Below, piece after piece: positions 3,606-29,163 of a DNA stretch of 29,163 nt. This stretch comes from an uncultured Syntrophaceae bacterium (GTDB taxonomy: Bacteria > Desulfobacterota > Syntrophia > Syntrophales > UBA2210): contig CAZOHQ010000001.1 in assembly GCA_964579455.1 (NCBI GenBank), positions 1 through 29,163 of the forward strand. The letters run 5' to 3'. Numbering within the stretch: position 1 is the first letter of the stretch; every line of letters starts with the position of its first letter. The translations under genes and the position numbers were made by a program. The notes beneath the pieces were generated by a model that saw only the letters and a program-made list of their open reading frames with translations, had not been told where the DNA came from and ran no database searches.

Positions 3606-5048
3606 GTGCAGTGTGATGGCAGTATTATAGAAGAATTGGAAGATCATCCCCGTGAATTTTGCGGTGTCTTCGGGATCTTTGGGGATCCCGATGCCGCGGA
3701 AAAAACCTACCTGGGACTGTACGCACTTCAGCATCGAGGACAGGAGAGCGCGGGAATCGCGGCGTCGGATGGGAAACAGATATCGCTCCACAGGGGAATG
3801 GGCCTTGTCTGGTCGGTTTTCCAGGATCCCAATATCATGCCGACACTTCGCGGTGCGTCTGCCATCGGGCACAATCGATACTCGACAACGGGCTCCTCGG
3901 ATCTTATGAATGCGCAACCTATTCTCATACGTTCCAGGGGCGAACAGATTGCCGCCGCCCACAACGGGAACCTGGTCAATTCCCGGGAACTTCACACCAT
4001 GCTTGAGGAACAGGGGGCAATATTTCAGACCACATCGGATAGCGAGATAGCCCTTCATCTCATTGCGAGATCGAAGAAGGCGACTATCGAGGAAAAGATC
4101 GAGGACGCCCTCTCACAACTGGAGGGTGCATACTGCTTCATCTTTCTTACCAATTCAAAATTAATCGCCGTACGGGACCCTCGGGGCTTCAGGCCGCTCT
4201 GTATCGGTAAGTTAGAAAATGCTTACGTTGTCGCCTCCGAATCATGTGCCTGCGATATCATAGGTGCCGAATACATTCGAAGCGTCGAGCCGGGAGAGAT
4301 CGTCGTCATCGATGAAAGCGGCATCTCTTCACGTTTCCTTAAAACAAAACCCAAACAATCTTCTTGTGTTTTTGAATATATATACTTTTCACGGCCCGAC
4401 AGTATCATCTTTGGCGAGAAGGTGGATAAGGCGAGGCGTATGCTGGGTAAAAGACTGGCCCAAGAGTCTCCCTGTGAAGCCGATATCGTAATCCCCATTC
4501 CCGATTCGGCCAATACCGCCGCCCTCGGGTATGCACAAGAATCGGGATTGCGCTTTGAAATCGGGCTGATACGAAACCACTACGTAGGTCGTACCTTTAT
4601 CGCACCCCACCAGAAGGCGAGAGATATGGACGTCAAGGTGAAATTTAATCCCGTGACCGGTGTATTGAAAGGGAAACGAGTTGTGGTAATAGAGGATTCC
4701 ATCGTTCGCGGTACCACCTTGAAGCAACTGATTCATCTCATCAGAAGTGCGGGTGCCGTGAAGGTTCATGTGCGTGTAAGTTCTCCGCCGATCATTTCTC
4801 CCTGCTTTTACGGGATTGACATATCGAGCCGTGGTGAGCTTATCGCTTCTTCTCACTGCGTGGAAGAAACGTGCCGCTATCTCGAGGCCGATTCCCTTGC
4901 CTATCTCTCGGTTGAAGGAATGCTGAGTGCCGTTCCCGAGGGAGAGCTTCAATGTACCGCATGCTTCACGGGAGAGTATCCGACAGAGGTTCCTCAAAAC
5001 TTCAGCAAGGATCTCTTCTCCGCTGATTGCGGGGAGATAGAAAAATAA
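3606..5048 (+). CDS. purF: Amidophosphoribosyltransferase (propeptide-bearing, Fe-S type)
   Basis: GTG start after AAGGAG; 18-aa propeptide then CGVFG; LQHRGQESAG, GHNRYST, AHNGNLVN, CVFEYIYFSRPDS, DSIVRGTT, SPCFYGID, CTACFTGEYP. Confidence 0.97.
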   Translation: MQCDGSIIEELEDHPREFCGVFGIFGDPDAAEKTYLGLYALQHRGQESAGIAASDGKQISLHRGMGLVWSVFQDPNIMPTLRGASAIGHNRYSTTGSSDLMNAQPILIRSRGEQIAAAHNGNLVNSRELHTMLEEQGAIFQTTSDSEIALHLIARSKKATIEEKIEDALSQLEGAYCFIFLTNSKLIAVRDPRGFRPLCIGKLENAYVVASESCACDIIGAEYIRSVEPGEIVVIDESGISSRFLKTKPKQSSCVFEYIYFSRPDSIIFGEKVDKARRMLGKRLAQESPCEADIVIPIPDSANTAALGYAQESGLRFEIGLIRNHYVGRTFIAPHQKARDMDVKVKFNPVTGVLKGKRVVVIEDSIVRGTTLKQLIHLIRSAGAVKVHVRVSSPPIISPCFYGIDISSRGELIASSHCVEETCRYLEADSLAYLSVEGMLSAVPEGELQCTACFTGEYPTEVPQNFSKDLFSADCGEIEK

Positions 5049-5068
5049 TTATTGATGGAAAAAGTATT

Positions 5069-6913
5069 ATGACAGTCGTAAAGCGTTCATACTGCGGGAA
5101 GCTGAGGCTTACCGATAAAGGCACTGAGGTACATCTGAAGGGATGGGTGGATGCCTTAAGGGATCATGGAGAGGTTCTTTTTATACATCTCCGAGACAGA
5201 AGCGGTATCGTGCAGGTAGTATTCAATCCCGAAGACACCCCTGCGAAGACATGCAGACAGGCCCAGTCGCTGAGAAGTGAATTCTGTATTTCAGTGAGAG
5301 GCTTTGTGAAAAAAAGGAATAAGGGAACGGAAAACCCGAATATCGAGACGGGCAAGATCGAGGTGGTTGTCTCTGATCTGGAAATTCTTAACCAATCCAA
5401 GCCACTGCCCTTTCCTATTTCGGAAAAGGCAATGGTCGCCGGTGCTGCCGTCGGGGATATCGGTTCGATAGCTGAAGATACGCGGCTACAATATCGCTAC
5501 CTCGACCTGAGACGCCCTACCATGCAGCGCAATCTCGTTATGAGGCACCGCATCACCAAATGTGTCCGCGATTATCTGGATGAGCATAGTTTTGTTGAAG
5601 TGGAAACGCCGATGCTGACAAAGAGTACTCCGGAAGGTGCCCGCGATTATCTTGTTCCCAGCCGCATCCACCCGAAACGATTTTATGCGCTCCCCCAGTC
5701 TCCCCAGCTTTTCAAACAGCTTCTCATGGTAAGCGGTATTGAACGTTATTTTCAGATCGCACGGTGCTTTCGTGATGAGGATCTGAGACCGAACAGACAG
5801 CCTGAATTCACCCAGCTTGACCTTGAGGCATCCTTCATCGAGGAGGAAACTATATATAACCTGATGGAAGAGCTTGTGGTGCGCATGTTTGCCGTGGGTG
5901 GCATTACCATCACCCTTCCCTTTCCACGAATGACCTGGGATGAAGCCATGGATTCGATGGGAACGGACCGGCCCGATGCCCGCTTTGGTCTCCGCTTTAC
6001 TGATGCCACCGATATCTTCAAAGATACCTCCTACGGCATATTCAGTCGAATAGTGCAAAAGGGCGGTTTTATAAAGGGGATTAACGTCAAGGGGCAGTCT
6101 GACAAGCTGAGCAAAAATGTCCTGCAGAATGAGTATGCGGGCAAGATCGTTCCCTCCTTCGGTGCAAAGGGTATGACCTGGATGCGGGCTATAGGGGAAA
6201 CACTGGAATCCAATATCGTTCAGTTTTTCAGCGAGGAAGAGAAGAAAAACATCAGAGAGCGTTTCAATGCCGAAGAAGGTGATGTTATCATACTCATCGC
6301 CGATACCTCTTACAAGGTTGTTTCATCGGTCCTGGGACAGTTGAGGATGCATCTGGCTCATCGGCTTGACTTAATTCCGAAAGATGAAGTATGTCCATTA
6401 TGGATCACGGAATTTCCGCTTTTTACTACGACAGGAAGAAGAATAACATCGAATCACCACCCCTTTACCGCACCGGACAGTTCCGATTTCGATCCGAATA
6501 ATCGAGAGGAACTCCTTGCCCTTAAGTCACGTGCCTATGATCTGGTTGTCAACGGCGAGGAACTCGGGGGTGGAAGCATTCGAATACATGACAGTTCCCT
6601 TCAGCAGAAAATATTTCAGGCCCTCGGTTTGTCCGATCGTGAGGTGAAGAAAAAGTTCGGATTTTTCCTGAAGGCCCTTGATTACGGAGCTCCGCCTCAC
6701 GGAGGCATCGCCCTCGGCATGGACAGGGTTATTTCCATGATACTGGGAACGGAAACCATTCGTGAAGTCATCGCCTTCCCGAAGAACCGAAGTGCCCATT
6801 GCCCCCTCAGTGAAGCGCCTTCTTCCGTCGCGCGCAAACAGCTATCCGACCTGGGTCTGCTCGATCTCGATAGCGGCAAATGGGTTGAGGGGAAAAAAAT
6901 TATAACGGGTTAG
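5069..6913 (+). CDS. aspS: Aspartate--tRNA(Asp/Asn) ligase, non-discriminating type
   Basis: OB-fold (GWV..LRDHG..FIHLRD), RYRYLDLRR-like motif, STPEGARDY, PQSPQLFKQ, FRDEDLR, GAPPHGG. His in RDHG and Gly in KGTENP are the non-discriminating signatures. Start ATG 5069. Confidence 0.95.
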   Translation: MTVVKRSYCGKLRLTDKGTEVHLKGWVDALRDHGEVLFIHLRDRSGIVQVVFNPEDTPAKTCRQAQSLRSEFCISVRGFVKKRNKGTENPNIETGKIEVVVSDLEILNQSKPLPFPISEKAMVAGAAVGDIGSIAEDTRLQYRYLDLRRPTMQRNLVMRHRITKCVRDYLDEHSFVEVETPMLTKSTPEGARDYLVPSRIHPKRFYALPQSPQLFKQLLMVSGIERYFQIARCFRDEDLRPNRQPEFTQLDLEASFIEEETIYNLMEELVVRMFAVGGITITLPFPRMTWDEAMDSMGTDRPDARFGLRFTDATDIFKDTSYGIFSRIVQKGGFIKGINVKGQSDKLSKNVLQNEYAGKIVPSFGAKGMTWMRAIGETLESNIVQFFSEEEKKNIRERFNAEEGDVIILIADTSYKVVSSVLGQLRMHLAHRLDLIPKDEVCPLWITEFPLFTTTGRRITSNHHPFTAPDSSDFDPNNREELLALKSRAYDLVVNGEELGGGSIRIHDSSLQQKIFQALGLSDREVKKKFGFFLKALDYGAPPHGGIALGMDRVISMILGTETIREVIAFPKNRSAHCPLSEAPSSVARKQLSDLGLLDLDSGKWVEGKKIITG

Positions 6914-6926: not shown

Positions 6927-8018
6927 ATGATGAAAGCATTACTTGTATTGGAAGATGGAAGATTTTTTGAGGGAACATCCTTTGGCGCCTCCGGGGAACG
7001 CTTCGGCGAGGTGGTGTTCAACACGGGGATGACGGGCTATCAGGAAGTCCTGACAGATCCGTCCTATAAAGGTCAGATCGTCGTAATGACCTGTCCCCTT
7101 ATCGGAAATTACGGAATCAATGAAGAGGATTCGGAATCACGATCCCTCTGGCTCGAAGGTTTCGTCATCAGGGAGCTGAGCGGCATAACCAGCAACTGGC
7201 GATCGCAAAAGGACCTTGCCACCTACCTCGAAGAACACAATATCATAGGCATCCAGGGTATCGATACCCGCGCACTGACAAAACACATCAGAACCAGGGG
7301 TGCCATGAGGGCCGTTATATCCACCGCCGACGATAACATCGATTCTCTCGTTGAAAAGGCATGCGCATCGCCCGGACTTGAGGGGATAGACCTCGTGGCG
7401 AGCGTGACCTGTGAAAAACCCTCTGTGTTGAACGGACAGGACGGACCGCGGGTCGTTGTCATGGATTTCGGCGTCAAACAGAGCATTTTGAATCAGCTCC
7501 GGAATGAGGGCTGCAATGTGACCGTTCTTCCCGCCCATACCTCGATTGATGAGATTATGGAGAGGGAGCCCGGCGGCATACTTCTCTCAAACGGTCCTGG
7601 AGATCCCGATGCCGTGAAATATGCGGTAGCCACGACAAAGAGACTTCTCGAGATGGGAACGATTCCGATCTTCGGTATCTGCCTGGGTCAACAGATTCTG
7701 GGCCTGGCACTGGGGGGGAGGACATATAAACTAAAATTCGGACATCACGGATCAAACCAGCCTGTCAAGGACCTGAAAACGGGGAAAATCGATATTACCG
7801 TTCAAAACCACGGGTTTTGTGTCGATATCGATTCTCTTGACAAAAAATTGATAGAGATGACCCATATTAACCTCAACGATAATACACTGGAAGGCTTTGA
7901 GCATAAAGAATTGCCTGCATTTTCAGTTCAGTTTCATCCGGAGGCTGGTCCCGGTCCTCATGATGCGCGATATCTGTTCCACCGGTTTGTCGAAATGATA
8001 ACAAGTTATGAAAAGTAG
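6927..8018 (+). CDS. carA: Carbamoyl-phosphate synthase small (glutaminase) subunit
   Basis: GEVVFNTGMTGYQE, LSNGPGDP, GICLGQQ (catalytic Cys), QNHGF, QFHPEA. Start may be 6927 or 6930. Confidence 0.97.
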   Translation: MMKALLVLEDGRFFEGTSFGASGERFGEVVFNTGMTGYQEVLTDPSYKGQIVVMTCPLIGNYGINEEDSESRSLWLEGFVIRELSGITSNWRSQKDLATYLEEHNIIGIQGIDTRALTKHIRTRGAMRAVISTADDNIDSLVEKACASPGLEGIDLVASVTCEKPSVLNGQDGPRVVVMDFGVKQSILNQLRNEGCNVTVLPAHTSIDEIMEREPGGILLSNGPGDPDAVKYAVATTKRLLEMGTIPIFGICLGQQILGLALGGRTYKLKFGHHGSNQPVKDLKTGKIDITVQNHGFCVDIDSLDKKLIEMTHINLNDNTLEGFEHKELPAFSVQFHPEAGPGPHDARYLFHRFVEMITSYEK

Positions 8019-8029
8019 GAGTGTGAGAA

Positions 8030-9568
8030 GTGAAAGAGACAGTTGCCGTATTTGATTTCGGATCACAGTACTCCCAGCTCATCGCCCGACGTATCAGGGA
8101 GATGGGTGTCTACTGTGAGATTGTCAGGCATGATATATCGAAAGATAAGCTGGCAGAGCTTGCTCCTGTAGCAGTGGTTCTTTCGGGAGGCCCCGCCTCA
8201 GTTCTCGACCCGGATTCGCCCTCCATGGACCGTGAGATACTCTCTCTCGATATACCCATACTGGGCATATGCTACGGTATGCAACTCATGGCACAGCTTC
8301 TCGGTGGTGTGGTGGAAAAGGGGAGGGGCGGAGAATACGGTCCCGCCTTGATTGAGACCTCAGGATCGACGGGTATATTTCAGGGAATGGAATCTCCTCT
8401 CCATGTCTGGATGAGTCATGGGGATCATGTAGAGACAGTTCCCGAAGGCTTTCTCGTGCTGGCGAGCACACATGATTGCCCGATCGCAGCTATGATGGAT
8501 ACAGCAGGGAGAATGTTTGGCATTCAGTTCCATCCCGAAGTGGTTCACACACCGAAGGGGGTCGAAATTATCAGAAACTTTCTCTTTCATGTGGCGGGAT
8601 GTGCGGGCGATTGGACCATGGGTCGATTCGCCGAAGAATCGGTGAAAAAAATCAGGGATACCGTGGGCGATTCCAATGTAATCTGCGGCCTTTCGGGCGG
8701 TGTCGATTCATCCGTTGCTGCCGCACTCATAAACAGGGCGATAGGTGGCCAGATGAAGGCCATCTTTGTGGATAACGGTCTCCTGCGGAAAGGGGAAGTG
8801 GATGAAATCCGCACCCTCTTTACCGAAGATTATAAGCTCAACTTCCGCATTGCTGACGCAAGGGTGAGGTTTGTCGATGCGCTGAGAGGGGTGATTGATC
8901 CCGAAAGAAAGAGGAAGATCATCGGCGAGACCTTTATCGATGTCTTTAGAGACGAGGCAGCGGGTGTCGAATCCGCCCGGTTTCTTGCCCAGGGAACGCT
9001 CTATCCCGACGTGGTGGAAAGCCAATCGGCCCATGGCGGACCCTCTTCAATGATCAAGAGTCATCATAATGTTGGAGGCCTGCCCGCTGATCTCCCTTTT
9101 GAACTCCTGGAACCGCTCAGGGAGCTATTTAAAGATGAGGTACGGGTGCTTGGGAGAGAGTTGGGATTACCGGAAAGGCTCCTGATGAGACAACCCTTTC
9201 CGGGTCCGGGCCTGGGTGTACGCATCGTAGGTGAGGTGACTGAAGAGTCCCTTGCCATACTTCGAGATGCCGATGTAATTGTTCAGGAAGAGTTGAAGGC
9301 CTATGAGGGATATGGAGATATCTGGCAGTCCTTTGCCGTTCTCCTCCCCGTTAAAAGTGTGGGTGTGATGGGTGATGAGCGGACCTATGACAACGTGGTG
9401 GCCCTGAGAATTGTCACAAGTCTTGATGCGATGACGGCCGACTGGGTCAAACTTCCCTATGAAATTCTGGGAAAGATATCTTCGAGGATCATTAACGAGG
9501 TAACGGGCGTGAATCGTGTCGTCTATGACATAAGTTCAAAACCGCCCAGCACCATCGAGTGGGAATAG
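8030..9568 (+). CDS. guaA: GMP synthase (glutamine-hydrolysing)
   Basis: DFGSQYSQLIARR, GICYGMQ, WMSHGD, QFHPEV, LSGGVDS, IKSHHNVGG, PFPGPGL, SKPPSTIEWE; GTG start after AGGAG. Confidence 0.97.
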   Translation: MKETVAVFDFGSQYSQLIARRIREMGVYCEIVRHDISKDKLAELAPVAVVLSGGPASVLDPDSPSMDREILSLDIPILGICYGMQLMAQLLGGVVEKGRGGEYGPALIETSGSTGIFQGMESPLHVWMSHGDHVETVPEGFLVLASTHDCPIAAMMDTAGRMFGIQFHPEVVHTPKGVEIIRNFLFHVAGCAGDWTMGRFAEESVKKIRDTVGDSNVICGLSGGVDSSVAAALINRAIGGQMKAIFVDNGLLRKGEVDEIRTLFTEDYKLNFRIADARVRFVDALRGVIDPERKRKIIGETFIDVFRDEAAGVESARFLAQGTLYPDVVESQSAHGGPSSMIKSHHNVGGLPADLPFELLEPLRELFKDEVRVLGRELGLPERLLMRQPFPGPGLGVRIVGEVTEESLAILRDADVIVQEELKAYEGYGDIWQSFAVLLPVKSVGVMGDERTYDNVVALRIVTSLDAMTADWVKLPYEILGKISSRIINEVTGVNRVVYDISSKPPSTIEWE

Positions 9569-9577: not shown

Positions 9578-12500
9578 ATGCCAAAACGTACTGATATAAA
9601 AAAGATTCTGATTATCGGTTCAGGACCTATCGTCATCGGACAGGCCTGCGAATTCGATTACTCCGGCACTCAGGCCTGCAAGGCTCTCGTCGAAGAGGGA
9701 TACGAGGTGGTACTCCTGAATTCGAACCCGGCCACCATTATGACGGATCCCGAGATGGCCGACAAGACCTATATTGAACCGATAACGGCAGATATAATCG
9801 AGAAAATCATCGAGAAGGAACGTCCCGATGCCGTCCTTGCCACCATTGGCGGTCAGACGGCACTTAATACGGCCGTTGAGGCCGCCGAACGGGGGATCTT
9901 TGAACGATATCATGTGGAGATGATCGGGGCCGATCTGCCGGCCATCAAGAGGGCTGAAAACAGGGATGAATTCAAAGCGGCGATGGCGGAGATCGGACTC
10001 GATGTCCCCAGGAGTGAGGTGGCCCATTCCATGGAGGAGGCCCGAGAGGTCGCGGATGATTTGGGCTTTCCCCTTGTCATCCGTCCCAGCTTTACCCTCG
10101 GTGGTACCGGCGGTGCCCTGGCCTATAATGCCGAGGAGTTTGAAGACTGCGCCTCCTATGGTATCGAACAGAGCATGATAAACGAGATCCTCATAGAGGA
10201 ATCTGTCCTCGGGTGGAAGGAATACGAACTGGAAGTCATGCGTGATCATAAGGACAATGTGGTCATTATCTGTTCCATAGAAAACTTTGACGCCATGGGG
10301 GTTCACACGGGTGATTCCATCACCGTCGCCCCTGCCCAGACACTTACGGACAGGGAATATCAGTATCTTCGCAATGCATCCATTGCAGTCATTCGAAAGG
10401 TGGGAGTTGCCACGGGGGGATCCAATATACAATTTGCCGTAAATCCCGAAACGGGACGTGTGGTGGTTATCGAGATGAATCCCCGGGTTTCGAGATCCTC
10501 TGCCCTGGCATCGAAGGCGACCGGATTCCCCATTGCGAAGATTGCCGCAAAACTTGCCGTCGGTTACACCCTCGATGAAATCCCGAATGATATTACGAAA
10601 CAGACTCCGGCATCCTTTGAGCCAACCATCGACTACTGCGTGGTCAAGATACCCCGTTTCGCCTTTGAAAAATTCCCCGGCGTGGAAGACACCCTCACCA
10701 TATCGATGAAATCGGTGGGGGAAACCATGGCCATCGGCAGGACCTTCAAAGAGGCGCTCCAGAAAGGGCTGAGGGGGCTTGAAACGGGCCTGAACGGGCT
10801 TGACCGAAACAGAGGAGATGCCTGTGAATACAGTGATGCGCTTCTCACCCGTCCTACTGCGGAGCGGCTTTTTCACATACGATGTGCCATAGAAAAAGGC
10901 ATGCCCATCGACCGGATAGCGGAGCTTTCGGGAATCGATCCCTGGTTTCTCCAGAATATCAAAGATATCGTCGATATGGACACAACGATCGGGGGCTTCA
11001 GGGGTGGGGGTACACTCCCTCCGGATATCATGAAAAAGGCTAAGAAATTCGGATTTTCAGACCGACAGATAGGCAACATTATGGGTATGGATGAATCCCG
11101 CATTCGGACCATGAGGGAAAAGGACGGGATAACGCCGGTCTATAAGCTTGTCGATACCTGTGCCGCCGAATTTGAAGCCTATACGCCCTATTATTACTCT
11201 ACCTATGAGGAAGAAGATGAAAGCAGGGGGAGCGAAACCAGAAAAGTAATGATAATAGGCGGCGGCCCGAACAGGATTGGGCAGGGGATAGAATTCGATT
11301 ACTGCTGTGTTCATGCCTCGATGGCACTGAGGGAAGCAGGGTATGAGACGATAATGGTAAATTCCAATCCTGAAACGGTATCCACCGATTACGATATTTC
11401 GGACAGGCTCTATTTTGAACCCTTAACGCTGGAGGATGTTCTCAATATCGCCCGGACGGAAAAGCCCGAAGGCGTCATCGTGCAGCTTGGCGGGCAGACA
11501 CCCCTGAATCTGGCTTTGCCCCTGGCGCAGAACGGAGTGAAAATACTGGGAACGTCTCCGGAGGCCATTGACCGGGCCGAAGACAGAAAACTCTTCAAGG
11601 AAATGGCCGACAAACTGGATATCAGACAACCCGCAAACGGCACGGCGATCTCATTTGAAGAGGCCGAAGAGATAGTGGAAAGAATCGGGTATCCCGTGCT
11701 GATTCGACCTTCCTATGTGCTCGGTGGAAGGGCCATGGTAGTGGTCTGGCATCAGGAAGATCTCAGGGGATTTGTGAAGGAAGCTTTTGAGGCATCACCG
11801 GATCACCCCATACTGATAGACAAATTTCTCGAAGATGCCCTTGAGGTGGACGTCGATGCCGTTTCCGACGGAATCGACGTTATCATAGGCGGCATTATGG
11901 AACATATTGAGCACGCCGGCATTCACTCGGGGGACAGCGCCATGGTTATTCCCTCCTATTCGATCAAACAGGAAATGCTGTCGGAGATAAAGGATGTGAC
12001 GAGGCGTATGGCCCTCGAGCTTGAGGTAAAGGGCCTTATCAACATCCAGTTTGCCGTTAAGGGTGATGAGCTCTATGTGCTTGAAGTAAACCCCCGGGGG
12101 TCGCGCACCGTTCCCTTTGTATCAAAGGCTACCGGCGTGCCTCTGGCCAAGATCGCCACAAGAGTAATGGTCGGTCAGTCCCTCAAGGATCAGGGAATAT
12201 TCAAGGATCCTGAACCCCGGTATTTTTCGGTCAAAGAATCGGTTCTTCCCTTCACGAGATTTTATGGCGCCGATACACTTTTGGGCCCGGAGATGAAATC
12301 CACGGGTGAGGTAATGGGGATCGATCCCGATCTCGGAGTGGCCTTTGCGAAGAGCCAGATTGCCGCCGGGCAGAGCGTCCCAGATTCCGGGAAGGTATTT
12401 ATCAGTGTCAAGGACTATGATAAACGTGAAATTGTAGAAATTGGGAAAAAATTCGAGGATCTTGGGTTTGAGATACTGTCAACACCAGGCACGGCACAAA

Positions 12501-16591: not shown

Positions 16592-16600
16592 GTTTTTCTC

Positions 16601-17827: not shown

Positions 17828-17879
17828 TGTACGACCTCCAGTATAACAATTTTTAATATTTTCTACGATCCAGTACCTA

Positions 17880-17894
17880 TCAATATCCGTACCA
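17880..17894 (-). promoter_or_regulatory. Putative sigma54 promoter for amtB-glnK
   Basis: Minus strand TGGTAC-GGATA-TTGA: correct GG spacing, with -12 GC changed to GA. About 53 nt from the amtB start; UAS pair 80-125 bp upstream. Confidence 0.6.
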
Positions 17895-18016: not shown

Positions 18017-18145
18017 TATTCTCCATCCTTATCAATGTGACGGTCGAAATGAAGGCAGCAAGTGAAGGTGGTTACTCTGTATTTGCTACAGCCCTGTTAA
18101 TGGGATACAGGGCAGGCTGGTAACTTACACACGAGGAGCATGAGG

Positions 18146-19708
18146 ATGGAGCAGAAGGAAAAGCATAAAGCAACCCGGAAGAGCAGGGAAATGAGTGAAC
18201 TTTCCTTGCTCTACGAAGTCAGCCAGGCCCTTGGTCGAAGCCTGGAAATTCGAGAAGTGACAGGACCCGTATTAAATGCACTGGCGGAGAAAATGGGTAT
18301 GACACGGGGGACACTGACACTCCTCAATAGAAACAGTGGAGAGATGTTTATAGAGATAGCCCACGGATTATCCGAGATGCAGAAAAAGAAGGGACGATAT
18401 CAGATAGGCGAAGGAGTTACCGGCAAGGTAGTGGAAACCGGCCAGCCAGTAATCGTTCCCCACATCTCCGATGAACCCCTTTTTCTGGACAGGACGGGAT
18501 CACGAAAAGATCTTAACAAAACGGACATTTCTTACATCTGTGTCCCCATAAAAATTGGAACGGAGGTCATCGGGGCCCTCAGCGCCGACAGGCTCTTTGA
18601 CGAGACCATATCCCTAAAAGAGGATGTACGACTCCTTTCGATTATTGCATCCATGGTAGCCCAGGCAGTTCGGCTTCGCCAGGAGACACAGGAAGAACGT
18701 GAACTGCTGATTCAGGAAAACCTGCGCCTGCAGAGCGAATTGAAAGAAAAGTTTCGTCCCTCGAATATCATAGGCAAGTCCAAGGGAATACAGGAGGTAT
18801 ATCAACTCATTGCCCAGGTATCCAACAGCACTGCCAACGTATTGATCCGGGGTGAAAGCGGGACAGGCAAAGAGCTTATAGCAAATGCCATTCATTTTAA
18901 CAGTATGAGGGCCAGTAAACCCCTGGTCAAGGTCAATTGTGCCGCACTCCCCGAAACGGTCCTCGAAAGCGAGCTTTTCGGTCATGAAAAGGGAGCTTTT
19001 ACGGGAGCCACTTCCTTGAGAAAGGGGCGATTTGAACTGTCTCATGGGGGGACAATATTTCTCGACGAGGTGGGAGATCTTCCCCCAATGGTACAAATAC
19101 GGCTTTTGAGGGTCCTCCAGGAACGCGAATTTGAGCGGGTGGGCGGAACCCAGACGATGAAAATCGATGTGCGGGTGATTGCAGCGACAAACAGGAATCT
19201 GGAAACATTGATGGAAAAGGGAGATTTCAGGCAGGATCTCTACTATCGGCTCAATGTATTCCCCATCTATGTGCCCCCTCTCAGAGAACGGAAATCTGAC
19301 ATTCTGCTTCTCACCGACTTCTTTGTGGAACGGTACGCCAGGGCAAATAATAAGAGGATTCAGCGAATCTGTACCCATGCCATAGACATGCTTATGAGTT
19401 ATCACTGGCCGGGTAATGTCAGGGAATTGGAAAACAGTATTGAGCGGGCAGTCCTTCTCAGCAATGAGGGTGTGATCTATGGATATCATCTTCCCCCCAC
19501 GCTGCAGACCTCTGCATATTCAGGAACGATTCCCTATGGAACGCTTCAGGGCGAGGTTGACCGATATGAGCGCGATCTCATAATGGATGCCCTGAAGACC
19601 TCAAGGGGAAACATGTCAAGGGCTGCGAAAATTCTCGGTACCACGGAAAGAATCATCGGATTGCGGGCCCAGAAATACGATATAGACTCTAAGCGCTTTC
19701 GTACATAA
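18146..19708 (+). CDS. NifA-type sigma54-dependent transcriptional activator (GAF-AAA+-Fis HTH)
   Basis: N-terminal GAF, GESGTGKE, GAFTGA, FLDEVGDL, WPGNVREL, C-terminal HTH (RGNMSRAAKILG). Start 18146 is preferred to 18140 on RBS spacing (GAGGAG at 18133-18138). Confidence 0.95.
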   Translation: MEQKEKHKATRKSREMSELSLLYEVSQALGRSLEIREVTGPVLNALAEKMGMTRGTLTLLNRNSGEMFIEIAHGLSEMQKKKGRYQIGEGVTGKVVETGQPVIVPHISDEPLFLDRTGSRKDLNKTDISYICVPIKIGTEVIGALSADRLFDETISLKEDVRLLSIIASMVAQAVRLRQETQEERELLIQENLRLQSELKEKFRPSNIIGKSKGIQEVYQLIAQVSNSTANVLIRGESGTGKELIANAIHFNSMRASKPLVKVNCAALPETVLESELFGHEKGAFTGATSLRKGRFELSHGGTIFLDEVGDLPPMVQIRLLRVLQEREFERVGGTQTMKIDVRVIAATNRNLETLMEKGDFRQDLYYRLNVFPIYVPPLRERKSDILLLTDFFVERYARANNKRIQRICTHAIDMLMSYHWPGNVRELENSIERAVLLSNEGVIYGYHLPPTLQTSAYSGTIPYGTLQGEVDRYERDLIMDALKTSRGNMSRAAKILGTTERIIGLRAQKYDIDSKRFRT

Positions 19709-19744
19709 AAGTAATTACCGAAGCATAATCCTACATAATGGTGG
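19701..19744. promoter_or_regulatory. Tandem putative enhancer (UAS) sites upstream of the glnA promoter
   Basis: GTACA-TAAA-AGTAA (19701-19714, overlapping the activator stop codon) and CTACA-TAAT-GGTGG (19731-19744), 30 bp apart. Confidence 0.7.
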
Positions 19745-19841: not shown

Positions 19842-19856
19842 TGGCACTAAAGTTGC
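19842..19856 (+). promoter_or_regulatory. sigma54 (-24/-12) promoter
   Basis: TGGCAC-TAAAG-TTGC consensus match, 30 nt upstream of the glnA remnant ATG. Confidence 0.88.
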
Positions 19857-19885
19857 TCTTCATAGGAGGAACTGGAGAAGGTGCC

Positions 19886-20409: not shown

Positions 20410-21137
20410 TTATAGTGGAAAAGGCACTCATTATCACCCATGTAAACTCCGAGGGACCTGGTACCCTGGGAGATTTTCTTATATCTCAGAATATAGATAT
20501 AGAGAGGGTTAATTTCTCTCAAGGGGAAGTCCTTCCGAAAGACCCTTTGGAGTATGACATCATTATTACCATGGGCGGACCCATGAGTATCCATGATGAG
20601 GACAGATACCCTTTTTTGAGTGAAGAGGTTGGGTTTTTACGAAAAGCAATAGAGGGTAATGTTCCCCTCCTCGGGATATGTCTCGGGGCACAGCTGATCG
20701 CACGGTCGTGTGGTGCGTGGGTTGGGAAGGCGGAAAAACAAGAACTGGGCTGGAAGGACGTCTTTATTACCGAGGCGGGGAAGAAAGACATGCTTTTTCA
20801 GGGAATCTCGAATGTGATGCGTGTCTTTCAGTGGCATGAGGATACCTTTGATATTCCTCAGGGGTCTACATTCCTTGCGACAGGGTGGGACTGTGAAAAT
20901 CAGGCCTTTCGATATCGTAATGCCTTCGGCCTTCAATTCCATATTGAAGTAACGAGGGAAATGCTGTGTCAATGGTTCGAGGGGAGTCCCGAACTCGATA
21001 CAATATTACAAGGCTATGAAGAGATAGAGGTTGATTTGATAACCCGTGCCAGGACACTCTATTCGAACTTTTTGTGGCTTTCCGATATCCGAAAACGTGC
21101 CTGGGCAGGACAGGACGGGCCTGGTTTGCAGGGATAA
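20406..21137 (+). CDS. Class I glutamine amidotransferase (stand-alone, GMP-synthase-like GAT domain)
   Basis: MGGPMS, LGICLGAQL, FQWHEDTF, QFHIE (Cys-His-Glu triad intact). Start uncertain (TTG 20406 or GTG 20415). Confidence 0.88.
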   Translation: MIIVEKALIITHVNSEGPGTLGDFLISQNIDIERVNFSQGEVLPKDPLEYDIIITMGGPMSIHDEDRYPFLSEEVGFLRKAIEGNVPLLGICLGAQLIARSCGAWVGKAEKQELGWKDVFITEAGKKDMLFQGISNVMRVFQWHEDTFDIPQGSTFLATGWDCENQAFRYRNAFGLQFHIEVTREMLCQWFEGSPELDTILQGYEEIEVDLITRARTLYSNFLWLSDIRKRAWAGQDGPGLQG

Positions 21138-22206: not shown

Positions 22207-23739
22207 GTGAGTGAAAAGATGAGCATGAAAAACAATTGGAAAGTACGACCCTCCTTCCATCCCGAGTTCGACCTCGAAAGGTGTGACTATAAGAACGGCT
22301 GCACCATATGTGTGAAGGAATGTTCGTTCGGGGAGATTTCACTCAAACCCCTCAAGGGGAAAAACGGTGATATTCTGTATCGCCCATGGGCAAACATGCG
22401 GGCGTGCAATTCGTGCCAGCGTTGCGTCAAGATGTGTCCCCAGAGTGCCATCCATATTGTATCGCAGCCGATGCACACCTCCCACGGTTACTGGAAGACG
22501 GCACCGGTAAGCAATATCTGGCGTCAGGCCGGTTCCGAAGGAGGAGTGTTGCTGGTGGGTACGGGTGCGACGGGTCCCCAGAAGCGATATTTTGATCACA
22601 TGATGTTCGATGCCTGCCAGGTTACCAATCCCTCCATTGATCCCCTCCGTGAGCCGATGGAGATCAGGCGTTATCTGGGTCGAAAAGCGGAACGGTACGG
22701 TGGAGAGGTCGGTTCGCAACTCAAACTGGACGTACCGATCATGTTCGGGGCCATGAGCTTCGGCGCCTTGAATCTCAGGGTCCAGGAAGCAGCGGCACGA
22801 GCCACGCGAAAGATGGGCACCTACTGGAATACGGGAGAAGGCGGGTTTCACGAGAGGTTGAGAAATTACGGTGGCAATACGATCGTCCAGGTTGCCTCGG
22901 GAAGATTCGGTGTCAGCGAGGATTACATGAAATCGGCTGCGGCCGTAGAAATAAAGATAGGACAAGGTGCAAAGCCAGGAATCGGAGGTCATCTCCCGGG
23001 CGAAAAGGTCTCCGAAGCCATTTCGAAAACGAGAATGATTCCAGAGGGATCCGATGCCCTTTCGCCGGCGCCGCACCACGATATCTATTCCATAGAGGAC
23101 CTGAGGCAACTCATCTATGCGATAAAAGAGGCGACCGATTACAAACTTCCCGTATCGGTAAAGATTTCGGCCGTTAATAATGTTGCCCCCATTGTCAGTG
23201 GTATCGCACGGGCCGGAGCCGACATCATTGCGATTGACGGGTTTCGCGGAGGCACCGGAGCCACACCGCTTCAGATTCGCCAGAATACGGGTATCCCTAT
23301 AGAACTTGCCATATCCGCCGCAGACAGGAGACTTACGGAAGAGGGTATCAGAAACACGGTCAGCCTTGTGGCATCGGGCGGAATACAGACTTCTTCCGAT
23401 GTGTTGAAGGCCATATGTCTTGGCGCTGATGCGGTCTATTTGGGGACACCGGTTCTCATCTCTCTCGGGTGCAATGTCTGCCAACGCTGTTTTACGGGCC
23501 GCTGTCCCTACGGTATTACCACGAACAGGCCCGGTCTGGCGGAAAGGATTGATGTGGATGAAGCAACCCAGGCCCTTTCCAATCTTCTTCATGCCTGGGG
23601 GGAAGAGATAAAAGAGCTCATGGGATCTATGGGAATAAGCGCTATCGAGGCCTTACGGGGAAACAGGGACAGATTGCGCGGTGTGGGTCTCAATGAAGAA
23701 GAATTGAGCATTCTTGGAATCAAACACGCCGGAGCTTGA
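22207..23739 (+). CDS. Glutamate synthase FMN-binding subunit with N-terminal ferredoxin (archaeal-type GltB2/GlxD-like)
   Basis: Cys clusters C..CTICVKEC and CNSCQRCVKMCP; AMSFGAL, NTGEGG, QVASGRFGV, EIKIGQGAKPGIGGHLPGEKV, SPAPHHDIYSIEDL, CNVCQRCFTGRCP. Start uncertain (22207/22219/22225). Confidence 0.92.
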   Translation: MSEKMSMKNNWKVRPSFHPEFDLERCDYKNGCTICVKECSFGEISLKPLKGKNGDILYRPWANMRACNSCQRCVKMCPQSAIHIVSQPMHTSHGYWKTAPVSNIWRQAGSEGGVLLVGTGATGPQKRYFDHMMFDACQVTNPSIDPLREPMEIRRYLGRKAERYGGEVGSQLKLDVPIMFGAMSFGALNLRVQEAAARATRKMGTYWNTGEGGFHERLRNYGGNTIVQVASGRFGVSEDYMKSAAAVEIKIGQGAKPGIGGHLPGEKVSEAISKTRMIPEGSDALSPAPHHDIYSIEDLRQLIYAIKEATDYKLPVSVKISAVNNVAPIVSGIARAGADIIAIDGFRGGTGATPLQIRQNTGIPIELAISAADRRLTEEGIRNTVSLVASGGIQTSSDVLKAICLGADAVYLGTPVLISLGCNVCQRCFTGRCPYGITTNRPGLAERIDVDEATQALSNLLHAWGEEIKELMGSMGISAIEALRGNRDRLRGVGLNEEELSILGIKHAGA

Positions 23740-23740: not shown

Positions 23741-25903
23741 ATGCTGACGATAGAGACAAAGGGGCTTTACTACAAGGCCCTCAACAGACAGATCAGAAAA
23801 TCGCTGGCACGGGGAGAAAAAGAGATCGTCCTCAACGATGTTCTGGGACAACGCTACATTGGGGGCGGTCTGGAGAGTACTGCGCACTTTGACATCCACG
23901 GCACACCGGGACAAGATCTGGGCGCCTTTATGAACGGTCCCGAGATCGTCGTTTATGGCAATGCCCAGGATGGTGTGGGTAACACCATGAATAAGGGGAG
24001 AATCATCGTCCACGGCAAGGCAGGTGAAATTCCGGGCCACTCGATGCGAGGGGGGGAATTGTTCATCAAGGGCGATGTGGAGTACCGCGCCGGGATACAC
24101 ATGAAAGAATACCTCGATTCCGTGCCCTGGCTCATCATAGGCGGAACGGCCAAGGATTACTGCGGCGAGTATATGGCGGGCGGCAGGGTTGTGGTACTCA
24201 ACCTGAAAAACAGGAAGGTATCACCTGTGGGAGACAGCGTGGGGACGGGCATTCACGGAGGCTCCATCTTCGTGAGGGGCGAGGTCAAGGAATACCAGCT
24301 GGGGACCGGGGCCATTTTTGCCGAACTCGATGAGTCCGACGAAAAATTCTTATATGAGGTCTTTGCCGAATATTCGGGGTATTTCGATACCGATATGAGC
24401 GGCATAGTACCGGGCAATTTTGTAAAGATCACGAAAAAGGGACACCGACCCTTCGCCAGTCTCTATACGCCGGGGATGAATATCAAGACCGATTTGCCTA
24501 TGCATCTGAATCTTACGCCTCCCTGCACACATGCATGTCCTGCCGGGATCCCTACTCCGGTTTTTTTAAACCTTATCAAGGACGGAAAAGTTGACGAAGC
24601 CCAGCGGTTAATGGACGAATATACCCCCTTTCGGATGTCCGTCTGTGGGACCGCCTGCCCCGCACCTTGCATGGATGCATGCAACCGGGGTATGCTTGAC
24701 GACCCGCTCCATTTGCAGGAGATGGCAAAGGAGTTCTATCCCGATTTCAATCCTGATATTCTGGAAGAGGAAAAGGAGCAGATCATTTCCATTATCGGGG
24801 CAGGGCCCGCGGGCCTTTCGGCCGCCTGGCAGCTTGCGAGACGGGGATATAGAATCAGGGTCTATGATGCCTTGAATGATCTTGGCGGTAAGGTGAGGAA
24901 GGCTATCCCCCGCGAAAGACTTTCAGACAAGGTCCTCGACAGGGATATAGAGAGGATTACCTCGCTTCCCATTGAATTTCACATGGGTAAGAGGGTCGAC
25001 CGGAAGATGTTTGAGAAGATCTATACGAAATCCGATGTCATTCTTGTTGCCACCGGAGCCCATACAGGTAAAAGAATCGAATATCCGGGTGGGGAGAGAA
25101 TCCGGTCAGGTCTGCAGTTTCTTATGGACATCAACGAGGGACGGGATATGGACCTCTCGGGAAAAGAGATCGTGATTATCGGCGCCGGTAACGTGGGCAT
25201 GGATATCGCCTGTGAGTCATGGAGAATGGGCGCAAAGAAAGTGACCGCCCTTGATGTCCAGAAACCTCTTGCCTTCGGGCATGAACTTGAAGCGGCCGTG
25301 GCACTGGGAACGGATATTCTCTGGCCTAAATTTATAGAAAGACTGGATGACGAGAATATCTTCTTCAATGATGGAACGGAGATGAAGGCGGATATGGCGC
25401 TTTTCAGCATAGGAGAGATCCCGGACACCTCTTTTCTTCCCGAATCCGTCTTGATCGACGAAAGGGGATATATTGTAACGGCGGAAAAATCCTTCAGGAG
25501 CAGCGATCTGAAGATTTGCGGCTGCGGTGACATACGCAGGCCGGGCCTCATTACCGACGCCGTGGGATCGGGAAGGCTTGCCGCGCTTGAAATCAATACG
25601 ATCTTCACGGGGACCACATTCATCTATCCCGAAAAAAATCTCGTACCGAAAAGACAAATGAATACGATCTATTTCGGCGATGAGGAGGGTGAGATAGATA
25701 GATGTATGAGCTGCGGCACTTGCATCTTTTGCGATAAATGTATAGAAAACTGTCCTCAAGAGGCAATTACCCGTAACGGAGAGATCTTTACAGTAGATCC
25801 TCTCAAATGTACTTTATGCTATACCTGTGCAAATGTATGTCCGCGCGGGGCGATTCAGACCGAGTTCTTCATTGATATCAGGGAAAGTGCCTTTAATGAA
25901 TGA
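23741..25903 (+). CDS. Fusion of glutamate synthase GXGXG beta-helix domain (GltB3/GlxC-like) with GltD-like FAD/NAD(P) oxidoreductase and C-terminal 2x[4Fe-4S] ferredoxin
   Basis: GQRYIG, GTPGQDLGAFMNG, GNAQDGVGNTM, GEYMAGG; then PPC..ACP, CGTACPAPCMDACNR, IIGAGPAGLSAA, IIGAGNVGMD, CGSCxxC-type C-terminal Cys clusters (CMSCGTCIFCDKC..CP, CTLCYTCANVCP). ATG 23741 after GGAG. Confidence 0.88.
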   Translation: MLTIETKGLYYKALNRQIRKSLARGEKEIVLNDVLGQRYIGGGLESTAHFDIHGTPGQDLGAFMNGPEIVVYGNAQDGVGNTMNKGRIIVHGKAGEIPGHSMRGGELFIKGDVEYRAGIHMKEYLDSVPWLIIGGTAKDYCGEYMAGGRVVVLNLKNRKVSPVGDSVGTGIHGGSIFVRGEVKEYQLGTGAIFAELDESDEKFLYEVFAEYSGYFDTDMSGIVPGNFVKITKKGHRPFASLYTPGMNIKTDLPMHLNLTPPCTHACPAGIPTPVFLNLIKDGKVDEAQRLMDEYTPFRMSVCGTACPAPCMDACNRGMLDDPLHLQEMAKEFYPDFNPDILEEEKEQIISIIGAGPAGLSAAWQLARRGYRIRVYDALNDLGGKVRKAIPRERLSDKVLDRDIERITSLPIEFHMGKRVDRKMFEKIYTKSDVILVATGAHTGKRIEYPGGERIRSGLQFLMDINEGRDMDLSGKEIVIIGAGNVGMDIACESWRMGAKKVTALDVQKPLAFGHELEAAVALGTDILWPKFIERLDDENIFFNDGTEMKADMALFSIGEIPDTSFLPESVLIDERGYIVTAEKSFRSSDLKICGCGDIRRPGLITDAVGSGRLAALEINTIFTGTTFIYPEKNLVPKRQMNTIYFGDEEGEIDRCMSCGTCIFCDKCIENCPQEAITRNGEIFTVDPLKCTLCYTCANVCPRGAIQTEFFIDIRESAFNE

Positions 25904-25971: not shown

Positions 25972-27591
<1,620 letters not shown>

Positions 27592-27642
27592 GGCAGGCGG
27601 GTCGACAAAAAACCCTATAACACCAAGAGGTCTGATTCATTC

Positions 27643-29163
27643 ATGATCAGGAAGATTACGAATACGTTACTCGATAGCTTCAGTCGTATGGGCCGGTGGA
27701 GGATTGCAATCGGAAAGGACCCCCGTCAAGTGCCTCCCCGCACGGCAGTGATCTTCCCCCTCGTTGCCGATACCCTCTTTTGTGGTCTTGCGGGGATCAT
27801 GACCATACGAAAGGAAGGGAAAGGCAAAAAAGTTGATATCGTCGAGAATCTGGACCTCCTTTTCGAAAAAAAAATCAAAGAAAAAAGTTTTAAAAAATTG
27901 ATCGGCAGAAAAACCACCTGGGCGAAATACCTTGGCGGTGACGAAGTGCTCGGGCTCGTGGAAAGAGATATCCTCAAGCTCAAGCAGGATTCATGTCTGG
28001 AAGATATCTTCTTTGAGCCCGAAAGATCAGAGAGACTCGAGGGGCTTTTCCGTCAGATGAAATCCTTTCTCGATGAAGAGGAAAAACTGGTGGAGCAGGA
28101 GGCCTATAATTTCTCCACCGGCGATATGGAACATATAAACAATGCCCTCATCCCCTTCAGAGATCATGTCTGGGCCCTCGAGAGGGATATTTTTCCTAAT
28201 ATCGAAATGATTCTCTCTCTGTCGGGAAACTCCGGGAAAGGAACGATATCGAGAGAGGCATTCGGTAAATACAGAAACATCAATCTCCTCCTGAAATCTC
28301 TCGACCGTCTGGAGGTACGGGGGAGGGACTCGGCGGGAATAGAGATAACGTTTGCCCTCAAGGAGGGGGATGCCCTGGACAGGGCAGCACGAGACATTGC
28401 AAAGCAGGGACTCAGCGATGAATGGGAACGAAGACTGAGTCCGGGTGATCTGGTGGACGGTTCCATCCATCTCTCTCCCACCACCGGTGAAAAAGGGCTT
28501 CCGGCCATCTCCTTCACCTACAAAAGAGCTTCCGTCACGGGTGCACTGGGCGCGAACGGAAGATATTTGAGGGAGAGGATACGGTCGGATCGACTGCTCC
28601 GGATATTTACGGGAGAGGCGATAGCCTCGGAGATGTATCTTGGTCATACGAGATGGGCCTCGGTAGGATCTATTACCGAGGAGAACTGCCATCCCGTCAA
28701 TAATTTTACGGTGGGTCCGGACAAGGAATCATCTCTTTCTCCCTCGTACAAGGAATATCCCGCTTACGGGCGGGGGGCATGGACTATTGACGTGGCGCTC
28801 AACGGAGACGTGGACAATTACGGCGAACTCCGGGCTGTCATAGAAAACGGGGGATCCGATGTCATCGATAAGAAGGTGACGACGGATACGAAGATAATCC
28901 CCCTTCAGATCGAAAAATATCTCTATGAAGGACACGAACTGGCCGAGGCATTTCGACTGGCCCTCAATGATTTTGAAGGTTCTCATGCCATTGCCATGGA
29001 GAGTAATCTCGAACCGGACAAGGTATTTCTCGCCCTCAGGGGAAGCGGTCAGTCTCTCTATATCGGGATCTGTGACAATCAGTATATGTTTTCATCGGAA
29101 CTGTACGGTCTCGTGGAGCTGACCCCCTATTTCATAAAGATGGACGGTGAGTCTGAGCGCATC
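27643..29163 (+). CDS. Large GlmS-like (glucosamine-6-phosphate synthase family) Ntn amidotransferase, partial (runs off the window)
   Basis: Manual translation, 507 open codons: FCGLAG (Cys47), LEVRGRDSAG (res ~223), GHTRWASVG..ENCHP (res ~334), LNGDVDNY, TDTKII, EGSHAIA. The SIS domains are outside the window. Absent from the ORF track. Confidence 0.8.
   Translation, partial: MIRKITNTLLDSFSRMGRWRIAIGKDPRQVPPRTAVIFPLVADTLFCGLAGIMTIRKEGKGKKVDIVENLDLLFEKKIKEKSFKKLIGRKTTWAKYLGGDEVLGLVERDILKLKQDSCLEDIFFEPERSERLEGLFRQMKSFLDEEEKLVEQEAYNFSTGDMEHINNALIPFRDHVWALERDIFPNIEMILSLSGNSGKGTISREAFGKYRNINLLLKSLDRLEVRGRDSAGIEITFALKEGDALDRAARDIAKQGLSDEWERRLSPGDLVDGSIHLSPTTGEKGLPAISFTYKRASVTGALGANGRYLRERIRSDRLLRIFTGEAIASEMYLGHTRWASVGSITEENCHPVNNFTVGPDKESSLSPSYKEYPAYGRGAWTIDVALNGDVDNYGELRAVIENGGSDVIDKKVTTDTKIIPLQIEKYLYEGHELAEAFRLALNDFEGSHAIAMESNLEPDKVFLALRGSGQSLYIGICDNQYMFSSELYGLVELTPYFIKMDGESERI

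Follow-up and report, generated by a model that had tools for sequence, protein, structure and literature searches.

Sigma-54-dependent nitrogen regulons of the Ntr and NifA type, in which glnA, amtB-glnK and gltBD are placed under an enhancer-binding protein, are classic. In textbook nitrogen control the regulated functions are ammonium uptake and the synthesis of glutamine and glutamate, and control of the glutamine-spending enzymes is left to the individual pathways. Here we describe a gene cluster in a 29,163-nucleotide stretch of DNA from an uncultured Syntrophaceae bacterium (contig CAZOHQ010000001.1 of assembly GCA_964579455.1; the whole stretch is hereafter called the window), in which genes for glutamine-dependent amidotransferases are collected around amtB-glnK, a NifA-like activator and a split glutamate synthase (GOGAT), and which we think may be controlled as one nitrogen regulon. 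The extension of a sigma-54 nitrogen regulon to glutamine-spending enzymes is the part that is not classic.

Like the Ntr/NifA-type regulons, the cluster has -24/-12 promoters with paired upstream sites, an activator that combines GAF, AAA+ and helix-turn-helix (HTH) domains with a GAFTGA motif, and genes for ammonium uptake, glutamine synthetase (GS) and GOGAT among its predicted targets. It differs from them in its other members, namely purF, carAB, guaA, pyrG, aspS, a GlmS-like gene and a gene for a large ATP-grasp protein, and in its upstream site, which is xTAC-N6-GTAG and not TGT-N10-ACA; neither nif genes nor an NtrB/NtrC pair is encoded in the 29-kb window. The nearest precedent that we found for a glutamine-using enzyme inside a nitrogen-limitation cluster is Prevotella ruminicola 23, where amtB, glnK, glnN (encoding GS), gltBD and the glutamine-dependent asnB are strongly induced at limiting ammonium, and amtB, glnK and asnB are described as clustered (PMC5552732). 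The nitrogen clusters and responses of this organism also include dapF, an aminotransferase and a glutamine amidotransferase without an assigned role (PMC5552732). In contrast to the present cluster, P. ruminicola 23 has one or two amidotransferases, scattered nucleotide genes, another type of regulator and no ATP-grasp or GlmS-like partner. In Geobacter, the same enzymes are encoded with their own pathways, in the operons pyrRBC-carAB, guaBA and purMN (PMC2700814), whereas the window genes are joined to other glutamine users. The GOGAT of the window resembles the archaeal-type split enzyme in that its glutaminase, FMN and GXGXG domains are separate open reading frames (ORFs), and departs from it in two respects: the GXGXG ORF also encodes, as a fusion, a GltD-like flavoprotein and a ferredoxin domain, and a class-I glutamine amidotransferase (GATase) gene stands ahead of the set. 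An initial annotation of the window, made from the sequence alone, had named no description of such a regulon, and we likewise found none, either of the clustering or of the ATP-grasp family, in the literature searched, which left out most subscription journals.

Results

Gene Content of the Cluster

The ORFs of the window were annotated by Pfam and NCBIfam scans and by ORF inspection, and the protein matches point to a Syntrophales bacterium (Desulfobacterota). The cluster comprises the following genes, assigned by Pfam/NCBIfam unless another basis is given.

3606-5048, plus strand: purF, amidophosphoribosyltransferase (TIGR01134 score 530 against a cut-off of 350)
5069-6913, plus strand: aspS, bacterial-type aspartyl-tRNA synthetase
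6927-8018, plus strand: carA, glutaminase subunit of carbamoyl-phosphate synthase
8030-9568, plus strand: guaA, glutamine-hydrolysing GMP synthase, between carA and carB
9578-12793, plus strand: carB, large subunit of carbamoyl-phosphate synthase
12867-16034, plus strand: gene for a 1055-aa GAF/KaiC-like/ATP-grasp (PPDK_N) protein, the final gene of the purF operon (Pfam and fold search)
16253-16591, minus strand: glnK, PII signal protein with the T-loop Tyr present
16601-17827, minus strand: amtB, ammonium transporter
18140-19708, plus strand: NifA-like sigma-54 enhancer-binding protein (GAF, AAA+ with GAFTGA, HTH_8)
19885-20409, plus strand: glnA remnant, a pseudogene with an early stop and an internal deletion of about 800 bp
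20406-21137, plus strand: orphan class-I GATase, PRK07053-like
21155-22204, plus strand: class-II glutaminase domain of glutamate synthase (GltB-N), starting with MCGIVG
22207-23739, plus strand: 2x[4Fe-4S] and FMN domain of glutamate synthase
23741-25903, plus strand: GXGXG domain of glutamate synthase, fused to a GltD-like flavoprotein and a ferredoxin domain
25981-27591, plus strand: pyrG, CTP synthase
27643-29163, plus strand: GlmS-like gene, N-terminal 507 residues, cut by the window end

The gene list of the initial annotation was confirmed by these scans for purF, aspS, carA, guaA, carB, amtB-glnK, the activator, the orphan GATase, the split glutamate synthase, pyrG and the GlmS-like gene. 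Its listing of GS as a member has to be withdrawn, since glnA is a broken remnant, and the gene for the 1055-aa protein was missing from it. Coordinates and gaps also agree with the two co-oriented runs that it described on either side of amtB-glnK and the activator: the internal gaps of the two plus-strand runs range from -4 to 77 bp, with the minus-strand glnK-amtB pair and the activator gene between them. No intergenic terminator-like sites were found within either run, which, together with the tight gaps, makes two long operons likely.

Motif inspection showed that all catalytic Cys motifs of the glutaminases are intact, as had been noted previously. The class-I enzymes carry GICLGQQ (CarA), GICYGMQ (GuaA), GICLGMQ (PyrG) and GICLGAQ (orphan GATase), and the class-II enzymes carry MCGIVG (GltB-N) and EFCGVFG (PurF), the latter behind an N-terminal propeptide that precedes the catalytic Cys of a protein with Fe-S cysteines on its C-terminal side. 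The window amidotransferases thus possess either the Cys-His-Glu triad of class I or the N-terminal Cys of class II. The cluster enzymes have ordinary sequences that score well over the equivalog cut-offs, and they look like ordinary working copies rather than special NH3-sparing isoenzymes. AspS matches best the AspS-GatC fusion family NF009460 (1076 bits, under the cut-off of 1379) and has no GatC part, which is at most a hint of the non-discriminating type named in the initial annotation. Seven of the 16 genes encode a GATase domain, for which the hypergeometric P is about 1e-12 to 1e-13 if 15-20 such genes are assumed per 2500-3000 genes, and no pur, pyr, gua or his gene for a step that does not use glutamine was found in the cluster.

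The term "island", under which the cluster had been reported, is a misnomer. The window contains no tRNA gene, Pfam scans of its called ORFs revealed no integrase or transposase family (two short ORFs were without any match), and the GC content of 0.44-0.54 in the cluster and 0.48-0.57 in the flank shows no anomaly, so that the tRNA or integrase border, the mobility genes and the deviant composition of a mobile genomic island are all missing here.

Promoters and Paired Dyads

Related loci are designated by L numbers. L002 and L003 belong to the Syntrophales metagenome-assembled genome (MAG) GCA_035405565.1, whose ATP-grasp protein is 88% identical to that of the window, and L165 and L166 represent the closest relative, with an ATP-grasp protein that is 93% identical. 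Three predicted regulatory regions were identified in the window.

2955..2998, plus strand: tandem dyads GCACATATCCGTAG and CTACGAAAATGTCG, 30 bp apart, candidate enhancer of the purF operon, centred at about -152 and -122
3088..3103, plus strand: sigma-54-type promoter TGGCACCATAATTGCG, about 490 nt upstream of purF
17879..17894, minus strand: sigma-54-like promoter of amtB-glnK, TGGTACGGATATTGAT, which reads TGGCACGGATATTGAT in L165 and L090
17973..18016, no strand assigned: tandem dyads CTACATTGCCGTAA and TAACAATTATGTAG, 30 bp apart, between amtB and the activator gene
19701..19744, plus strand: tandem dyads GTACATAAAAGTAA and CTACATAATGGTGG, 30 bp apart, centred at about -160 and -130
19842..19857, plus strand: consensus sigma-54 promoter TGGCACTAAAGTTGCT, just upstream of the glnA remnant

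Measured against the -24 GG/-12 GC elements, the glnA site is perfect and the purF site has one mismatch, and all three sites are conserved in relatives, with counterparts of the promoters of the three units found across L002, L004, L085, L090-L092, L165 and L166. The purF promoter corresponds to a perfect TGGCAC-N5-TTGCA in L165 and L166 and is kept in L002 against a diverged background, and the more distant L004 has a similar promoter ahead of a dapF-aminotransferase-purF-carA-guaA-carB operon. Upstream of amtB the pattern TGG(C/T)ACGGATATTGAT is conserved, the window site having TTGA at -12, and the promoter of the glnA remnant is kept in L002, L085, L090, L091, L092 and L165, as are the dyads at 19701..19744.

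The dyad is a 14-bp element, xTAC-N6-GTAG, which occurs twice per unit, exactly 30 bp apart, upstream of each of the three promoters, and these sit about 110-160 bp downstream of it. Its centres lie at about -152/-122 for purF in close relatives (-160/-130 in L004), at about -160/-130 to -162/-132 for glnA and at about -140/-110 for amtB; in 10 promoter regions from 7 loci the dyads keep both the 30-bp spacing and their distance from the promoter. The purF-operon dyads are kept in L002, L165 and L166, and also in L004, where they stand ahead of the dapF-purF operon. When one mismatch is allowed, the pattern AC-N6-GTA-N18-TAC-N6-GT is found three times in the window, each time at one of the three regulatory regions, against an expectation of 0.2, and none of 100 shuffles reached three. 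Zero-mismatch pairs fall at the regulatory regions of cluster-bearing relatives, the sole other one lying in L007, just past the 3' end of a glnK-amtB pair. The threefold occurrence of the pattern in the window and its conservation in relatives suggest one regulon. TCCTACNNAATG, tried first as the motif, was no commoner than chance and gave way to the dyad-pair pattern. None of the window promoters has the canonical NifA site TGT-N10-ACA. The inducibility proposed in the initial annotation is plausible, given the sigma-54-type promoters and tandem dyads predicted at all three units.

The purF leader (3104-3605, about 490 nt) contains conserved blocks, among them GACTTCRAAGG, which might base-pair with the purF Shine-Dalgarno region; among the three sequences available there is no clear covariation. 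An Rfam scan of the entire window at E<=1 gave no match, and the leader is thus not explained by any known riboswitch.

The activator encoded between the runs has GAFTGA at residue 285 and an HTH_8 domain, and hence the AAA+ and HTH parts of an enhancer-binding protein. Its score against the NifA model TIGR01817 (540) is barely over the cut-off of 529, and of the marks of NifA proper, TGT-N10-ACA sites are missing from the window promoters and nif genes from the 29 kb. Its GAF domain is related to the GAF domains of NifA and Nlh1. The GAF domains of the activator (18140-18730) and of the ATP-grasp protein (12867-13440) are about 60% identical, which suggests a domain duplication or shuffling and possibly a shared ligand.

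Recurrence across Phyla

In order to place the cluster in a wider context, species-representative genomes were scanned with an alignment of the ATP-grasp protein and then by tblastn with the window proteins, which gave 80 loci. At the species level, 51 of the 80 carry nitrogen-assimilation genes (gdhA, gltBD, glnA, amtB or NrpR) within about 10 kb of the ATP-grasp gene, and amidotransferase genes are present in 15. Examples of the gene orders are given below.

L028 (Omnitrophota): amtB-glnK-glnA-gltB-gltD-ATPgrasp-carA-carB-purF-pyrG
L035 (Omnitrophota, single amplified genome): ...ATPgrasp-pyrG-carA-carB-(82-aa ORF)-purQ-purL-purF
L022 (Planctomycetia): carB-purF-pyrG-gltB-gltD-ATPgrasp
L021 (Omnitrophota): carA-carB-carB-ATPgrasp-gltB-gltD
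L060 (Syntrophomonas): gltB-carA-carB-glnK-amtB-ATPgrasp
L048 (Syntrophothermus): glnA-split GOGAT-carA-ATPgrasp-gdhA
L087 (taxon not assigned): glnA-carA-guaA-carB-GlmS-like-purF
L010 and L130 (Smithella type): glnK-amtB <> ATPgrasp-GlmS-like, adjoining pyrG and gdhA (and NrpR in L130)

Linkage to amtB, glnK, glnA and gltBD recurs in at least four phyla, and Omnitrophota, Planctomycetota and Syntrophomonadaceae independently join amtB-glnK-glnA-gltBD with carAB, purF, purQL and pyrG around the same ATP-grasp protein. As the gene orders differ between loci, the association has been maintained and not merely inherited as one block. In our reading, the same logic emerged anew in other phyla or was retained there. 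Of the steps of nucleotide synthesis, the five that depend on glutamine (PurF, PurL/Q, GuaA, CarAB and PyrG) are all represented, and none of the approximately 17 others is; the odds of drawing exactly those 5 of about 22 nucleotide-synthesis enzymes are about 4e-5. The proposal that the genes cluster by co-substrate and not by pathway is well supported by this restriction to glutamine-using steps and by the return of the same mix, in other gene orders, in other phyla. The synteny survey that had been suggested alongside it found the layout on independent contigs and similar groupings in several other phyla, so the clustering is not unique to one assembly; it is real, non-random and conserved.

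A metagenome scan anchored on the N terminus of the GlmS-like protein reveals, in relatives, the genes that lie 3' of the window end, where the initial annotation had proposed a search for gatCAB, nadE, asnB, hisH and trpG. In L085 (an 88% match) and L090, the GlmS-like gene of about 1260 codons is followed by convergent purQ and purS-purL, and in L086 (78%) and L092 by hisH-hisF, all assigned by Pfam/NCBIfam. These are further glutamine amidotransferases that are detached from their own pathways.

Several loci show additional features. In L021 (1426-7947), a tandem pair of full-length carB genes separates carA from the ATP-grasp gene. The Omnitrophota clusters have a small ORF between glnA and gltB (L028 3710-4006, 98 aa; L035 3791-4057, 88 aa), and the 98-aa product is a stand-alone Fis-type HTH_8 protein. 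Several bacterial phyla encode homologues of NrpR, the archaeal nitrogen repressor, beside the ATP-grasp gene and gdhA (L044 8959-9975; L005, L013, L018-L020). Smithella-type and NrpR-linked loci (L010 9666-9705; L017 9814-9853; L027 4274-4313; L103 4289-4328; L152 13775-13814) contain a different, AT-rich motif, ACAAATTTGTAT, or variants of it in the vicinity of amtB, the ATP-grasp gene and NrpR, and the bacterial NrpR homologue of these loci may use it as its operator.

The ATP-Grasp and GlmS-Like Proteins

Across phyla, the ATP-grasp protein shares a core of 860 aa with 50-70% identity. In the lineage of the window it consists of a NifA-like GAF domain, a KaiC-like domain, an ATP-grasp domain of the PPDK_N type and a C-terminal domain in which His980 is invariant within the motif PELS(F/Y)GTHFFQD. 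Its AlphaFold model has a mean predicted local distance difference test score (pLDDT) of 82, and a fold search points to a KaiC/FlaH-like domain and to the ATP-grasp of rifampin phosphotransferase and phosphoenolpyruvate (PEP) synthase. At the P-loop position of the KaiC-like domain there is VDDIxDY and no Walker A motif. By Pfam, PPDK_N was detected and neither the swivel-His domain nor the PEP/pyruvate TIM-barrel domain was, and at E<=1 no Pfam family matched the KaiC-like and C-terminal parts. The score against the NCBIfam PEP synthase model is 62, the cut-off being 883, and the protein does not qualify as a PEP synthase, a pyruvate phosphate dikinase (PPDK) or an enzyme I (EI). In Phycisphaerae and Pirellulales loci, a NifA-like gene lies immediately upstream of the ATP-grasp gene. 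A 1472-aa homologue in Geobacter sp. OR-1 (L168 6500-16052) is encoded between an alpha-amylase-family gene and pgi; it probably represents a glucan-related subfamily that is not nitrogen-linked, and with such neighbours not every member of the ATP-grasp family is linked to nitrogen.

The GlmS-like protein is about 1260 aa long in relatives, twice the length of GlmS. It there combines a class-II glutaminase, which carries a leader and an insertion, with two SIS domains and a further stretch of about 330 residues without an assigned function. It keeps the GlmS glutaminase motifs, with FCGLAGI behind about 45 conserved residues, so that its catalytic Cys would need N-terminal processing. Its score of 219 against TIGR01135 lies under the cut-off of 418, and with this score and its length it falls outside GlmS proper, which is defined by an equivalog match and about 600 aa; at E<=1, no Pfam family matched its N- and C-terminal extensions. 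In 36 of the 80 loci, the GlmS-like gene is less than 400 bp from pyrG.

The nearest analogy to the ATP-grasp protein is EI-Ntr (PtsP), whose GAF domain binds glutamine and whose phosphotransferase system, PTS-Ntr, regulates GlmS (PMC4848567, PMC5024086). Both proteins have an N-terminal GAF domain, EI-Ntr is a phosphotransfer-type enzyme tied to nitrogen status, and the regulation of GlmS by PTS-Ntr may find a parallel in the Smithella-type loci, where the ATP-grasp gene adjoins the GlmS-like gene. Unlike EI-Ntr, the ATP-grasp protein has a PPDK_N ATP-grasp catalytic part, which EI does not possess, and an extra KaiC-like domain; it is without a PEP-utilisers swivel or TIM-barrel domain by Pfam, and no NPr or EIIA-Ntr gene is nearby.

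Changes in Close Relatives

L002/L003 have the same gene order as the window with glnA intact, and L085 shares the layout as well. What is left of glnA in the window, measured on a 443-aa GS, are codons 1-84, interrupted in frame by TAG at codon 12, and codons 352-443; about 800 bp are gone and the frame changes, and the sigma-54 promoter of glnA and the genes downstream are intact. The gene is also intact in L085 and L165. The decay is known from one contig and may be a population variant or an assembly collapse. The closest relative (L165 and L166) has the same layout minus guaA, which is deleted between carA and carB. The missing part corresponds to window positions 8005-9353, about 70 diverged, decaying 3' codons are left over (L165 5698-5907; L166 5177-5386), and the deletion is found on five contigs from different samples. 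The cluster copies of glnA and guaA can thus be dispensed with in some lineages, which hints at second copies or salvage. L090 is without pyrG between GOGAT and the GlmS-like gene. An antisense 457-aa ORF called in this locus was rejected as spurious, tblastn finding the GATase and gltB-N genes there. In each close relative examined (L002/L003, L085, L092 and L165), glnA and gltB-N flank the orphan GATase gene.

The amtB and glnK genes (window 16253-17827, L165 12753-14338) are 71-73% identical, compared with 88-94% for the flanking genes, and this uptake module seems to have been exchanged by recombination.

The left operon also occurs by itself. L004, L084 and L167 carry purF-(aspS)-carA-guaA-carB-ATPgrasp; in L004 and L167 no nitrogen module adjoins it, and in L084 there are no nitrogen genes in the DNA examined around it. 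From this and from the changing gene content we conclude that the cluster is the junction of two older modules, the Syntrophales operon of purF to carB plus the ATP-grasp gene, and a nitrogen-assimilation module. The left flank of the window contains three further genes.

up to 589 (<589), minus strand: DegT-like aminotransferase
591-1763, minus strand: iron-type alcohol dehydrogenase (Fe-ADH)
1810-2796, minus strand: dapF

In L167 (1-608 and 12701-15076) Fe-ADH and the DegT-like aminotransferase follow the ATP-grasp gene, and in the window (1-2796) they are inverted, on the opposite side and accompanied by dapF; the locus is rearranged. Genes of L167 are broken by frameshifts typical of long-read assembly errors.

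Discussion

On balance, we lean towards the view that the cluster is a chromosomal nitrogen/glutamine regulon, not a mobile island, which couples the supply of glutamine to its use. Three units would be transcribed from sigma-54-type promoters, namely purF-aspS-carA-guaA-carB with the GAF/KaiC-like/ATP-grasp gene, amtB-glnK, and the broken glnA followed by the GATase, the split GOGAT, pyrG and the GlmS-like gene, and we infer that the dyads of all three are bound by the cluster's own NifA-like GAF activator, whose gene lies at its centre. Nitrogen scarcity as the signal and induction as the direction of regulation are likewise proposed: when nitrogen is scarce, the activator would induce the genes for taking up ammonium and for making glutamine and glutamate along with those for the main glutamine-spending amidotransferases, such that supply of and demand for amide nitrogen would rise in step and the amidotransferases could hold flux at scarce glutamine.

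Several observations weigh against such a regulon. Both the promoters and the dyads are predicted from sequence; at purF, the promoter has one mismatch in the -12 element and lies far upstream of the gene, and a sigma-70-like site is present at 3282-3311 inside the purF leader. The dyad differs from the canonical NifA site, so that the protein binding it is assumed. The left operon stands without an adjoining nitrogen module in L004 and L167, and the losses of glnA and guaA are easier to reconcile with redundancy than with housekeeping genes that cannot be spared. Strict sigma-54 dependence would also be odd for sole copies of essential genes.

It is tempting to speculate further that a "glutamine economy" control is widespread in anaerobes, with a transcriptional arm, which co-induces glutamine supply and the glutamine-spending amidotransferases, and a post-translational arm, in which the ATP-grasp protein serves as a nitrogen-status phosphotransferase; this extended scheme is tentative, and we would not expect it to hold in full. 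The ATP-grasp protein, which in this lineage shares its type of GAF sensor with the activator, may work with the GlmS-like protein and the orphan GATase, and could play the role that EI-Ntr, GlnD or GlnE has in Proteobacteria, acting on glutamate dehydrogenase (GDH), GOGAT, GS, PII or the amidotransferases.

The initial annotation had interpreted the cluster as an inducible kit of glutamine-dependent isoenzymes, with housekeeping purF, carAB, guaA, pyrG and glnA elsewhere in the genome. We regard this as unlikely, even though it accommodates several of the observations above: copies expressed under certain conditions would go well with sigma-54 promoters, which require an activator; the window has a glnA pseudogene, although every cluster enzyme still needs glutamine; the closest relative has lost guaA by a clean deletion, the L090 cluster is without pyrG, and L021 has its two carB genes. 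Set against these are the ordinary, well-scoring sequences of the enzymes, the same clustering in Omnitrophota with small genomes and the existence of the left operon without the nitrogen module, and the loss of guaA is explicable by salvage. Moreover, aspS, pyrG and guaA are usually single-copy genes, and we know of no NH3-only PurF, GuaA or PyrG family that could take the housekeeping part.

That an operon for nucleotide biosynthesis or growth rate lies by chance beside a nitrogen-assimilation operon, with glutamine not being the organizing principle, is improbable. PurF, CarAB, GuaA and PyrG do all serve nucleotide synthesis, and the solitary left operon of L004 and L167 would be expected from such a juxtaposition; the restriction to glutamine-dependent steps, against none of the other 17 or so, would not. 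GOGAT, the orphan GATase and the GlmS-like protein, and hisHF in relatives, are members too, the linkage to nitrogen genes extends over at least four phyla, and the same dyads precede the nucleotide unit and the nitrogen units. Still more improbable is a glutamine-channelling complex of GS, GOGAT and amidotransferases that are made side by side and then assemble, with the ATP-grasp/KaiC-like protein as a scaffold: the genes are tightly packed, some overlapping, and include a conserved multidomain protein with an oligomer-type KaiC-like fold, but gene order is not conserved between phyla and GS is broken in the window. An assembly or binning artefact, or a chance juxtaposition, which a single 29-kb metagenomic contig might raise, is refuted by the same layout on independent JGI, NCBI, ENA and Logan contigs, and is hardly credible with a hypergeometric P of about 1e-12.

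The regulon that we favour offers concrete, testable predictions, in the form of three promoters, one 14-bp dyad, one activator and candidate ligands, and the analysis gives a nitrogen context to two large, widespread and uncharacterized families, the KaiC-like/ATP-grasp proteins of about 860 aa and the GlmS-like proteins of about 1260 aa. If this reading is correct, PurF, CarAB, GuaA and PyrG, and PurLQ or HisHF in relatives, would share a nitrogen switch with Amt, PII, GS and GOGAT, which would be a different way of budgeting amide nitrogen.

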